Assembly (NCBI RefSeq): GCF_002571385.2
Contig: NW_019217802.1
Coordinates: 939,769-996,610 of the forward strand
DNA: 56,842 bases
Source: Stylophora pistillata
Taxonomy: Eukaryota
Reading direction: 5' to 3'
The notes under the pieces are model-generated. The model worked only from the letters and a program-made list of their open reading frames with translations, had not been told where the DNA came from and did not search any database. The position numbers were made by a program, and so were the translations under genes. This document shows, in pieces, positions 41,916 to 45,798 of this stretch (position 1 is its first letter; each line of letters starts with the position of its first letter).

Positions 41916-44900
41916 TCACAAACTTTTTGTGTTTCTATATACAACAGACAAACATTTCTTGCCACACACTATTAAATGTTTCATTCTCTCCAGAGTCTCA
42001 GGTTTGAGACCTTTCTCAAAGTCTTGGAGTAAGTCATTCAATCTCTCTACAATGAATAGCAGTCTTTCAAATTCCAGCACTAATATCTTACGTGGAGAGT
42101 CTCTCGTGAAGCTTAACACCATCGCCAATCCTTCAAGGGCAAGAAGGGCCTGGAATTTAAAACCAAACACTTGTGGCAAATCTTGTGATGTATCACTCTC
42201 ACATAAATAGCTCACACGCCTTATTGTACAGCTAGGCCGAGGTCTGTGAGAGCCAAATCTATGTGAGCATGCGCCAAAAAACTGTTGGCCTTTTTCCAGG
42301 TTATCCAGTTTTTTGCTAGTTTGTTGCATCTGGTCTGGTGACCTGGCCAAGCGACACATCACGGCATGGTGTTCGTATGATCTCAAGTGTTTTGTATTCA
42401 CTGGTATCTCCACTTCACGCAGTGCCACGCCCTTCTCACAATCTTCACCATGGGAGGACCAGTCTTGCAGGCAATACCAACAGAATTCTTTATCACAGAG
42501 ACCACAGTGCATGTGATTACATCCAGGACCTTTCTGTATTGGGTAATTGCAAAATGGGCAGTTCTTAACTTCTACACTTGTAATTAGCCTCTCTTCTTGG
42601 TTGTTTTTAACCATCTTGGCATACCTTTCATGCCTCTTTCTGAACACCTGTGCCTCCTTGCAGGTAGCTGGCCAATGAGCATCCTCCTGGCACTTGAAAC
42701 ACCATGTGGTACCACAGACGCATGCCACTGGCATAGGCTGGACACTACCACCATCCTCAGTACCACAGACCCTGGAGTCCCTTAGTATTGTTGCCTTGAC
42801 AACCAACTTACACTGGTCTGTAGGACACCATTTCCACTCGGGGCTTATTTCCAGTAAGGTGTCCACCCTTTTTGCCATATGCCGTCCATACAGTGATGGT
42901 GTAAGAGACATTAAGGTGACATCATCAACTGTCGTGCTACACCCATGCCCTGGGCACCTCAGTTTTGCTTGGCCAAGATCAATCTGGGTCTTCAAGTGAG
43001 CCCTCCAGCAACTGTTACAGAATGTGTGCCCACAGGTGGTCAAAGTTGTGGTAGGGACATTATTATCTGAGGGAAAAAGAGGAAGAATATTCAGTCTTGT
43101 AATCATTTGTAACAATCACTCTACTTTTCAGTGCTTTAGTAACTTAACCCTTTCACTGCCAAGATCTGAATTGGAATTCTCCTTAGTGTGTCATACAATT
43201 CTTATAACTACATTAGTTTGAAGAATTAAGCATTGGATTAGCTACTGATCTGCTGGTTTATATTTTTCTTGATTCTCACTAATTGTCTGCCTGATATTGT
43301 ATTGATATTGTAAGGAGAAATTCTGTCTTGGTCACTCATAGGAGTCAAAAGGGTTAACTCTACATGTAGGAGCTTACTTATTATATTGCATTTCCATATT
43401 AGGCAAATAGTGCTGGTGCTAGGTTATTTCCAATATTCATAATTGAGTAAAATTGCAGCCCAGGCAATACTAATGAGTGTTTTGTGGATACTTTGACTTT
43501 ATCTGGTACTGGATCAACCTTTCAAGATTAATCAAAATCTTTGTGGATAGTCTTTAAAAAAATTTTTAATGTTTGAACTTAACTTGATAGATAATCACGC
43601 TGATTGGAAATGAATTTAAGAAAGAACTTTTTTCAGGAAGGATACATGTTTCTTATTCATTTGATGGAAAATGCACAAATGAAAAAACTATACTTAAGGT
43701 CTAAGAAAAATTTCTTTTCATTTGCCCTAAAAGAATTAAGACTGAAAGAATACCAAGCAGAAATTACAACTCTGACCTCGTTGCATTTCTCTAAATGCTC
43801 CATGGCTGAGCTTCACAAAACTAATAAATAAATCATTATTTCAGTTGTTATCAATAATTACTCTATGAGTTGCTTACCACTGCAGCTGATGAGTTCCATA
43901 AAACATATCCCGCACTCCATTTCAGTACTTAACACTGGTTTAGGGTTTTCTAGTTGGAATTCTTTTTTCTCAAAGGACATTCGTATCTCCTGACGTGCTT
44001 TCTGCAAAGTAAGAGCCTTCGACTTCCAACCAAGCAGATTTGCAAAGACATCAAAAGACAGTTTGGGTAGCCTGGGCTCTCCTGTGTCCACTTTATTGTT
44101 GATGTTTGAGCAGAAGCAGTTTCTAGCAGTGTACACAACATCCTCTAGAGTAAGGCCACAGACATCCTTTTTGATACTCATTGCCTTGATTTCAGAAATG
44201 AACTCTGTTAGCACTGATTCATGTACGCTTTCTTCACTGCAAATGACAGATGCAAACCAGTTTGGCAGCCTGTTACCATGCTGGAAAAGAACAAACACTT
44301 CTCCATTGATGTCCTGAGATGTTAGGGGTGTAACCTTGAGTGCAAATGTCCTTGGGACACTTTCTGCTTCAACATACTTTTCACCCCATATTTCCTCCAG
44401 AAGAACAGGATTAATTTCTTGTGGGAAAAGGAGAAGAGTGACATACTTATGGATGGCATCTGTTGCTGAAGGTAGTTGGTGTTGATTACCATCTCTGTTC
44501 GTAACTGAAGATGAATTGTTCAATTCTGAGGACAAGTTGGGATCAACTTGGGTGAATTGTCGAAAACGTTGTCGTCTTCCACCTCTCCCTCCTCTCCATC
44601 TGCCTCTTCCTCGCCCTCTGCCTCTCCCTCTTCCTCTGTGCATGCCACCTCTTACTGGTGCCTGCCAACCATCGTTCCAGCCCTGGTCATCCATGTCAGC
44701 ATCATGATCCCAGCCATCGCTATTATATCCCAAGTCATCCATATCAGCAACAGGAACCCTGTCATCAATATTAGCAACTGGATCCCTGTCATTCATATCA
44801 GCAACAGGACCCCACTCGTCAATACTGGCAATATGACCCCCATCATCCTCACCAGCAACAGGACCACTGTCATCTATAGGAGGATCTTGACCCCACTCAT

Positions 44901-45798
44901 CCATAGCAGGATCTTGACCCCACTCATCCATATTGACATCATAACCCCAGTCATACACAAAGGCATCGTAGGGGTAAGGATTAGAATTGCCATTATTATA
45001 TGCAGATGCCTCTTCTATTTGAGTCAGAAGTTCTTGATGTGCACTGTACATATCATCTCCACTGTCCACATAAATGCACTCCTTTTTAGGTGAGGAAAGC
45101 CTTGTGTTTCCGATGGCATTTTTCATTTGCTGTGAAGTCCTAATCTTTCCAATGGGATTTGTTTTCTTTCCAAGGGATGTTCTCAAAAGTGAGTCAAAAT
45201 AAATTGTGATAGATCTACCAAAGTTGTTTGAGTCACAGCGTTCACTGAGATCCTCCTCGATATAATGGAGAGATCGATCTTCTTCATGGACCTCCTCAAA
45301 GTCTTCCTCAATGTTCAAATCGAAACGAGAACTCTTCTTCCGAGTTCCAAACCGCGCCGTGGGCCTCTTTCTCTGTTTCTTGTTCTGCCATGGTCTAGAG
45401 GGACAGGGGTAACTCACCTCAAAACGTGTTCTCGCGTCTTCAACGTCAACGAGCAGATCTTTTGTTCGAGCCAATCTGCGCTTGGATTTTCGAGTTTTGC
45501 TGTCCTTTGAGCTGTATACTGACAAACAGTTGGGACGATCCTTTCTGTCATTAGTGAATCTTTCCACTAAAACAACCTCGTCCTTCTCGAATTCGGATGC
45601 GTTAGCCGTCTTGATAACTTCTGGAAGAAGCCAGCGATTTTGCTTGCCTAGCGAGTAGGTGATGACCTCTGTTTCGTCTTGGCTTCCTTCAGGGAAAGCT
45701 GTAGTGTGAGTAAGAAGACCCTCAGATCTTTTGGCTTGAGTTCGCGAACGTACAGTTCGTCCGTTGTTGACACCGAGTTTACCAAATTTCCAAACCAT
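41916..45798 (-). CDS. Ariadne-type RBR (RING1-IBR-RING2) E3 ubiquitin ligase, paralogue A, two exons, ~1023 aa
   Basis: Exons 45798-43878 and 43066-41916 joined by a phase-1 intron inside RING1 (CGICF...CGHTFCNSCW...CPGHGC); IBR CPTDQC...CVCGTTWCFKCQEDAHWPATC; RING2 CPFC...GCNHMHCGLCDKEFCWYC with catalytic Cys. Confidence 0.92.
43148..43353. mobile_element. piggyBac-like MITE in the RBR-A intron
   Basis: TTAA|CCCTTT...AAAGGG|TTAA; same family as 27044-27249. Confidence 0.8.
44575..44955 (-). repeat. Coding 27 bp (9 aa) degenerate tandem repeat rich in D/W/G, followed by an RG/RGG box
   Basis: VNMDEWGQD PAMDEWGQD PPIDDSGPV AGEDDGGHI ASIDEWGPV ADMNDRDPV ANIDDRVPV ADMDDLGYN ... RGGMHRGRGRGRGRGRGRWRGGRGG. 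Confidence 0.9.

Follow-up and report, generated by a model that had tools for sequence, protein, structure and literature searches.

An Ariadne-like RBR ubiquitin ligase of stony corals whose predicted disordered linker holds an RG box and a lineage-restricted WG/GW minisatellite

Can a ubiquitin ligase be tied to small-RNA silencing by a short acidic repeat? The question arises at a locus of the coral Stylophora pistillata, within 56,842 nucleotides of contig NW_019217802.1 (positions 939,769 to 996,610) that are called the window here and that carry two related genes for RING1-IBR-RING2 (RBR) ligases, paralogues A and B. The original prediction, made from the letters of the DNA, proposed that an array of WG and GW pairs followed by a run of RG dipeptides recruits paralogue A to Argonaute (AGO) or PIWI proteins. 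The analysis reported here points to another answer. On balance it is probable that the array and the RG box occupy an expressed, predicted disordered linker of an Ariadne-like ligase, in which the RG box, common to the coral A-type proteins, likely binds RNA or readers of methylated arginine, and a lineage-restricted minisatellite likely gave rise to the WG/GW pairs incidentally.

An expressed minisatellite in paralogue A

Translation and codon map agree on the repeat as it had been described, a 27-bp coding minisatellite at 44662..44958 of the minus strand, encoding residues 281-379 in acidic 9-residue units with four WG and three GW pairs and followed by (RG)6/RGG. Tandem Repeats Finder assigned a 27-bp unit in 7.4 copies with 72% matches to 44734-44933. 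The 99 residues of the array carry a net charge of -28 (overall range -28 to -32), contain 26% Asp and are rich in Met, Ile, Val, Tyr and His rather than in Gly, Ser and Asn. The seven WG/GW pairs exceed the mean of 1.7 obtained by shuffling the residues (p=0.00025), a value that has to be read in the light of the tandem duplication of the copies, which are hence not independent. The linker that holds the array and the RG box has AlphaFold confidence values (pLDDT) below 50 and is predicted to be disordered. In the first nine units the acidic residue before Trp is present in 9/9, Gly in 7/9 and Trp in 4/9, so that Trp has the lowest retention among the core positions. The codons at the Trp position are TGG four times, then AGT, GGG, AGG, AGG and TTG, and four of these five are a single base away from TGG.

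The array is part of a spliced messenger. Paralogues A and B are two-exon genes in head-to-head arrangement, with A encoded on the minus strand and B on the plus strand. Exon 1 of A (43878..45798), delimited by translation and the splice joint, runs from the ATG to the first half of RING1 and comprises 640 codons and one base; exon 2 (41916..43066), supported by translation, Pfam and RNA, encodes the rest of RING1, the IBR domain, the catalytic RING2 and a C-terminal helical domain, and the product has 1023 residues in total. The corresponding exons of B lie at 46814..48431 (translation, RNA) and 49208..50376 (translation, Pfam, RNA), the second encoding the RBR core and the C-terminal domain of a product of 928 residues. 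Between the two genes the exon-1 products align in two blocks of 41% and 29% identity, and the exon-2 products share 54%. The splice joint 43066/43878 of A, with CT..AC ends, was observed in 4/4 RNA runs, canonical splice ends were found for both genes in the same number of runs, and eight raw stranded reads with the expected directions cross the intron of each gene. Raw stranded reads also cover the array, and in 3/3 contig runs a single RNA contig passes through it without a gap. Reads and contigs mapped to the array alone displayed no indel or joint in any of the four runs, one of which is possibly the source DNA. Splicing and RNA coverage together exclude an intronic or unspliced artefact as the source of the array.

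The pairing of A and B recurs in Oculina patagonica, in which the two carry consecutive locus tags on one contig. In the window about 770 bases (45912-46677) separate the ends of the RNA contigs of the two genes, which point away from each other; this suggests a shared bidirectional promoter in the interval, although contig ends are no proof of start sites. The intron of A contains a 214-bp element (43144-43357) that is bounded by perfect 10-nt terminal inverted repeats. Reads and contigs reach very high depth on it and have many loose ends there; it is likely a high-copy miniature inverted-repeat transposable element.

Spread of the array and the Argonaute-hook question

Whether the array has a function of its own was approached through its relatives. 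The homologue set consisted of 37 proteins (23 A-type and 14 B-type), of which those with a named source come from stony corals. Addition of the window's A resulted in 24 A-type sequences, many of them close kin, so that counts of motifs among them are not independent. The 17 B-type rows were the window's B, 13 of the 14 B-type homologues (P0041, which is truncated, was dropped) and three proteins from a search with a family profile. In quick trees, with or without the linker, the A-type proteins form one clade (SH-aLRT 99). The 9-residue array is confined to two of the 24, the window's A and P0005, a pair of sisters with support 100. A Pocillopora origin of P0005 is likely, since named Pocillopora proteins share a cluster with the sister of the window's B. 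In the cluster of P0005, for which 15 members are listed, all six members that cover the region possess the array, in differing numbers of units. The acidic position is occupied in 11/11 and 12/12 units of the sister arrays, in which Trp is kept no better than its neighbours and the units are homogenised by duplication. The label paralogue-specific in the original prediction thus holds for the RG box, which occurs in A only, but not for the WG array, which is specific to a lineage within paralogue A.

Beyond this lineage such pairs are sparse. At least three WG/GW pairs before the RG box are found in 4/24 A-type sequences. Among 147 new profile matches of the wider family no 100-residue window contains more than three WG/GW, and in each of the two remoter family members that are encoded on contigs C77 and C127 of the same genome exon 1 has at most two WG/GW and at most two RG. 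A search for further array-bearing relatives among shorter proteins gave no match from 69 candidates, and of 114 pattern matches to the DNA of the array in metagenome contigs of the Joint Genome Institute none was confirmed. At one and the same site the near relatives P0023 and P0025 read WGWGRGWG and RGRGRGRG, respectively; WG can therefore arise or vanish by exchange of Arg and Trp within an RG tract.

The composition of the array was scored with the WG/GW matrix and the "dos" cut-off of 6.99 taken from the available part of PMC2910046. According to the same text, Argonaute-binding repeats keep little besides the WG/GW pairs in a setting rich in Gly, Ser and Asn, and glycine-rich sequences are named as false positives of the scoring. 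The array obtained -35.3 half-bits (-0.36 per residue) and the sister arrays -0.24 to -0.28 per residue, as opposed to +0.57 for reference WG/GW domains; by this score the array does not have the composition of a hook, rich in G, S and N and poor in M, I, L, Y, H and V. Its four WG seeds score 4.7-4.9 each, below the cut-off. Of six array-less orthologues that were scored, five reach 23-37 through the glycines of the RG box and the sixth gave no such segment; P0023, with WG pairs of its own, scores 23.3. Low-complexity drift, which the original prediction had mentioned as an alternative, fits the array best. Rather than serving as an Argonaute hook, the WG/GW pairs likely arose incidentally as the minisatellite expanded.

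Several observations do not sit easily with this conclusion. The matrix was trained on plant proteins and its extension parameter had to be guessed. The segment that combines the three GW with the RG box scores 22.0 (the "weak" class), above the cut-off, which is also exceeded by the last units of the sister array (7.1 and 8.7) in 2/4 members. In three members of the P0005 cluster the Trp unit has been kept and amplified, 8-9 of 11-12 units carrying it. Two A-type sequences other than the window's A and its sister have three and five WG/GW near the RG box, and at least one Trp precedes the RG box in 22/24. Conservation of Trp in orthologues had been set beforehand as the test that could refute the hook: the repeat and its Trp are largely not conserved, the sister lineage excepted, and because the Trp unit persists and has multiplied there, the refutation is incomplete.

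A hook of this kind would be specific to the lineage: the DxWG units would dock in the Trp pockets of the PIWI domain of coral AGO, recruiting the ligase to the RNA-induced silencing complex, and the RG box would add Tudor or granule contacts. With the hooks of GW182/TNRC6, NRPE1, SPT5-like and Tas3 the array shares several WG/GW pairs, seven in 99 residues, in a predicted disordered region; it differs from them in being rich in Asp, in its negative score and in the lack of preferential retention of Trp, and it is absent from most orthologues. Trp in the window is less kept than its neighbours, which is the reverse of the pattern described in the accessible portion of PMC2910046, and array-less orthologues score high through RG glycines, glycine-rich false positives being named there. 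Several AGO and PIWI genes are encoded in the genome, and in the segment whose aligned positions we take to form the Trp pockets a coral AGO shows a close alignment with human AGO2. Closely related genes of the AGO type were found on G000:C1, C1479 and C1184 (L003-L005, L011), L005 being without a stretch of the PIWI domain that is present in the others. In Nematostella, several Trp regions of GW182 mediate its binding to the AGOs of this animal (PMC5314787, partial text). Some small credence is therefore left to the hook, given the amplified Trp unit of the sister lineage, the alignment of coral AGO with AGO2 and the binding of Trp motifs by cnidarian AGO. The array in 2/24, its poorly kept Trp and its negative score leave the Argonaute or PIWI hook of the original prediction an improbable explanation. 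We likewise doubt the fuller form of the proposal, in which an ancestral DDW was amplified in a pocilloporid RWD-bearing Ariadne-like ligase to a multivalent hook for Argonaute, adjacent to a methylated RG box and directing the ligase to small-RNA complexes or germ granules. If it were true, an RBR ligase would be coupled directly to Argonaute, which would be unusual. In the literature searched no paper was found that joins RBR ligases with GW repeats and Argonaute, or with the coral Pocillopora.

The acidic residues next to Trp offer another explanation. The motif [DE][DE]W precedes the RG box in 17/24 A-type and in 0/17 B-type sequences, and the array unit starts with MDDW, which is found once in other A-type sequences. 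It could be a conserved short motif for a partner other than Argonaute, multiplied in the array for avidity; acidic Trp motifs together with RGG also make up the flanks of Vasa, whose C-terminal acidic motif with Trp is functional (PMC4400588, as far as its text was available). Against this stand its lack in 7/24, the variable residues that follow Trp and the close kinship of many of the 24 rows, and we regard it as unlikely. The original prediction had offered binding of Atg8 by motifs resembling the LC3-interacting region as one such function. This was rejected: a core occurs in one unit of the window's array and in none of the sister array, any core is found in 7/24 linkers at unrelated places, and no conserved [WFY]xx[LIV] core follows the acidic residues.

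The array may also act by charge alone, as an acidic tract that, like the N-terminus of Ariadne proteins, touches a basic surface of a cullin or damps the RG box. The net charge of -28 to -32 and the acidic positions, which are the best kept in the window and in the sister units, agree with this idea, as does an invariant Trp of the UBA-like segment that matches W140 of ARIH1; acidic and UBA-like parts of ARIH1 have been implicated in the binding of neddylated cullins (bioRxiv 10.1101/2025.02.01.636034, partial text). However, the short acidic N-terminus of Ariadne proteins lies directly before the UBA-like domain, a position that has no such tract in the coral ligase, whose basic RG box and RWD-like domain stand between the array and the UBA-like segment. 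Moreover, most orthologues have no array, and a separate acidic patch nearer to the N-terminus is common to A and B. There is accordingly little to recommend a role of the charge.

The RG box of A and the Lys/Arg stretch of B

In contrast to the array, the RG box is a property of every A-type sequence examined. It is located at 44566..44652 of the minus strand and reads RGG, (RG)6, RWRGGRGG and RRQR, of which RGG, (RG)6 and RWRGGRGG span residues 383-407. Its aligned place in paralogue B is taken by the basic KKRRRRAR at 47687..47710 of the plus strand, as the original prediction had noted. An RG box is present in 24/24 A-type and in 0/17 B-type linkers; those of the B-type have 5-8 Lys/Arg per 10 residues in 17/17 and never more than one RG. 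Among 64 full-length family members only three rows, all coral A-type, have an RG box in the linker. The RG codons of paralogue A vary synonymously, which suggests retention of the RG box at the level of the protein. A common allele (44648 C>T) that converts the first RGG to RDG, seen in 3/4 runs (6/9 raw reads, 2/3 contig runs), speaks against strict maintenance of the box. We infer that the RG box is the selected element of the linker.

Both segments are rich in Arg and occupy the same aligned place, and the closest Nematostella protein (P0154) has a basic linker as well. They could thus be interchangeable basic signals for nuclear or nucleolar localisation in which RG has no specific role. 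Since mere charge would not require the RG pattern that is found in every A-type linker, whereas B linkers have at most one RG, this explanation is very unlikely. A parallel is provided by RG/RGG proteins of RNA granules such as Vasa/DDX4, in which, as in paralogue A, an RG run with RGG adjoins an acidic Trp motif. The RGG region of Vasa evolves fast and contains tandem-repeat copies (PMC4400588, in the part available). The coral protein differs from Vasa/DDX4 in that it has no RNA-binding or helicase domain and in that the RG box is carried by a ubiquitin ligase. RG/RGG sequences are also borne by the N-termini of PIWI proteins and the tails of Sm proteins. The RG box likely contacts RNA, ribonucleoproteins or readers of methylated arginine and would tie the ligase to RNA-protein particles.

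Ligase core, flanking domains and an invertebrate RBR group

That the two genes encode RBR ligases was borne out by Pfam and alignment. The RING1-IBR-RING2 triad is present and the catalytic residues are intact; Pfam matched only IBR and RING pieces, in exon 2 of both genes. In paralogue A the IBR domain is encoded at 42660..42866 (minus strand; PF01485, E 2.5e-17) and the RING2 (Rcat) at 42453..42569 (minus strand; translation, Pfam and alignment), with the catalytic Cys-Asn-His and the Cys codon at 42521. G-C-N-H-M of RING2 aligns with ARIH1 in both A and B; the catalytic triad of RING2 is described in PMC7458406 (partial text). The catalytic His is not kept throughout the family: of 66 sequences 18 have C-x-H, 40 have other residues and in 8 the motif was unmatched.

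The domains that flank the core are predicted. By profile alignment a UBA-like segment (about 43954..44082, minus strand) corresponds to the UBA-like domain of ARIH1; its Trp591 (44028) is the residue that matches W140. A C-terminal helical bundle (about 41931..42383, minus strand) aligns, by model and profile, with the Ariadne domain of ARIH1, but Pfam Ariadne PF19422 gave no match in the A and B proteins. The RBR proteins of the Ariadne type (ARIH1/HHARI, ARIH2/TRIAD1, CUL9) have the same order of UBA-like domain, RING1, IBR, RING2 with a catalytic Cys-x-His and helical C-terminal domain. The family profile matches ARIH1 with E 3.4e-55 over residues 121-516, which include the UBA-like domain with W140, the RBR core and the Ariadne region, and the best Foldseek matches of the coral ligase are Ariadne RBR proteins (E 2e-10 to 2e-8). 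It differs from them by an N-terminal extension of about 570 residues that contains a basic module, the RG/acidic linker and an RWD-like domain.

The RWD-like domain (UBC-like fold; about residues 453-569, approximately 44092..44442, minus strand; AlphaFold, Foldseek and VIA) follows directly on the linker with the RG box and is the only confident fold encoded in exon 1 (pLDDT 76-92). The top five Foldseek rows are all RWD domains (E 0.007-0.09), VIA gave Z 7.9 with a root-mean-square deviation (rmsd) of 4.7 over 116 aligned residues and Z 7.5 with rmsd 3.5 over 105, and the fold was seen again in a second model. These Z values fall short of 8, which counts against the assignment. Pfam RWD had no match in the A and B genes, and a profile comparison with RWD domains of the same genome gave a weak match (probability 3%, in the right register). 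For these three reasons RWD-like is used as a prediction. If the prediction holds, the coral ligase resembles RNF14/ARA54 in the placing of such a fold before the RBR core; it differs in its ARIH1-like flanking domains and in giving no Pfam RWD match, and its domain is also devoid of the YP..P-type motif of the genome's canonical RWD domains. A separate locus with RWD and RBR exists on contig C5 of the genome, and no row of RNF14 appeared in the comparisons of the RBR core that returned ARIH1.

The N-terminus is formed by a conserved module of about 140-160 residues (in paralogue A about residues 1-140, 45380..45798, minus strand; family alignment) that is shared from cnidarians to hemichordates. 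It has a basic start motif, SLGK..RW.LP with an invariant K..RW, and YP.P, and its pLDDT is mostly below 50. It belongs to no Pfam family: a consistent Pfam match was not obtained in 44 proteins at E<=10, nor a usable match in the Atlas (TM <=0.30 by query). A resemblance between the first 20 residues of the family and the start of ribosomal protein eL43 was not supported (13 residues aligned, 3.1 bits, equalled by 131/2000 shuffles).

With the family profile 155 proteins were obtained at E<=0.001, of which the best 150 are listed. Twenty of the listed matches were looked up and included Nematostella (three), Actinostola, Ptychodera, Saccoglossus, Potamilus, Dreissena, Elysia, Owenia, Lingula, Lineus and five echinoderms. 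The group thus spans cnidarians, molluscs, annelids, brachiopods, nemerteans, echinoderms and hemichordates; no vertebrate or arthropod was among the named members looked up, and no search was aimed at their absence. At least four copies occur in the Stylophora genome (398 Mb searched, the window being on contig G000:C19), namely A, B and those on C77 and C127. At G000:C283:397147-397687 and G000:C366:287866-288225 the RBR exon occurs in interrupted or incomplete form with internal stop codons; these copies are likely pseudogene fragments. In the available parts of the general RBR literature no description of this invertebrate group was found; it may be among the ten ancestral animal subfamilies that PMC2904391 (partial text) counts on the basis of an animal RBR survey.

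A course of events can be proposed for the linker and the ligase. After a duplication in stony corals A would have acquired or kept the acidic-Trp and RG linker and B the Lys/Arg stretch, and through their differing linkers the two similar ligases may reach separate destinations, RNA-rich or nuclear. Among pocilloporids a short xDDWG motif would then have been copied in tandem, some units losing Trp by single-base changes. By analogy to ARIH1, binding of the UBA-like domain to a neddylated cullin may relieve the C-terminal domain and activate the enzyme (PMC7458406 and bioRxiv 10.1101/2025.02.01.636034, each in part). A connection to the ribosome through the RWD-like domain is conceivable by analogy to RNF14, which is involved in GCN1-linked ribosome surveillance (bioRxiv 10.1101/2022.03.21.485216, partial text).

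Elsewhere in the window an open frame at 30382-31125 (plus strand) matches thiopurine S-methyltransferase (PF05724, E 2.8e-46). The frames at 9530-10546 (338 codons) and 16616-17500 (294 codons), also on the plus strand, had no Pfam match at E<=0.01. A very AT-rich stretch at 37700-38530 (GC 0.19-0.26), open in all six frames, is likely a simple repeat.

The main yield of the locus is a widespread, uncharacterised group of invertebrate RBR ligases in which an RWD-like domain in the style of RNF14 and a core in the style of ARIH1 are apparently combined. Within this group a duplication in corals split the RG box from the Lys/Arg stretch. Should the box direct the ligase to RNA particles, it would provide a testable link between ubiquitination and the control of RNA or translation in corals.

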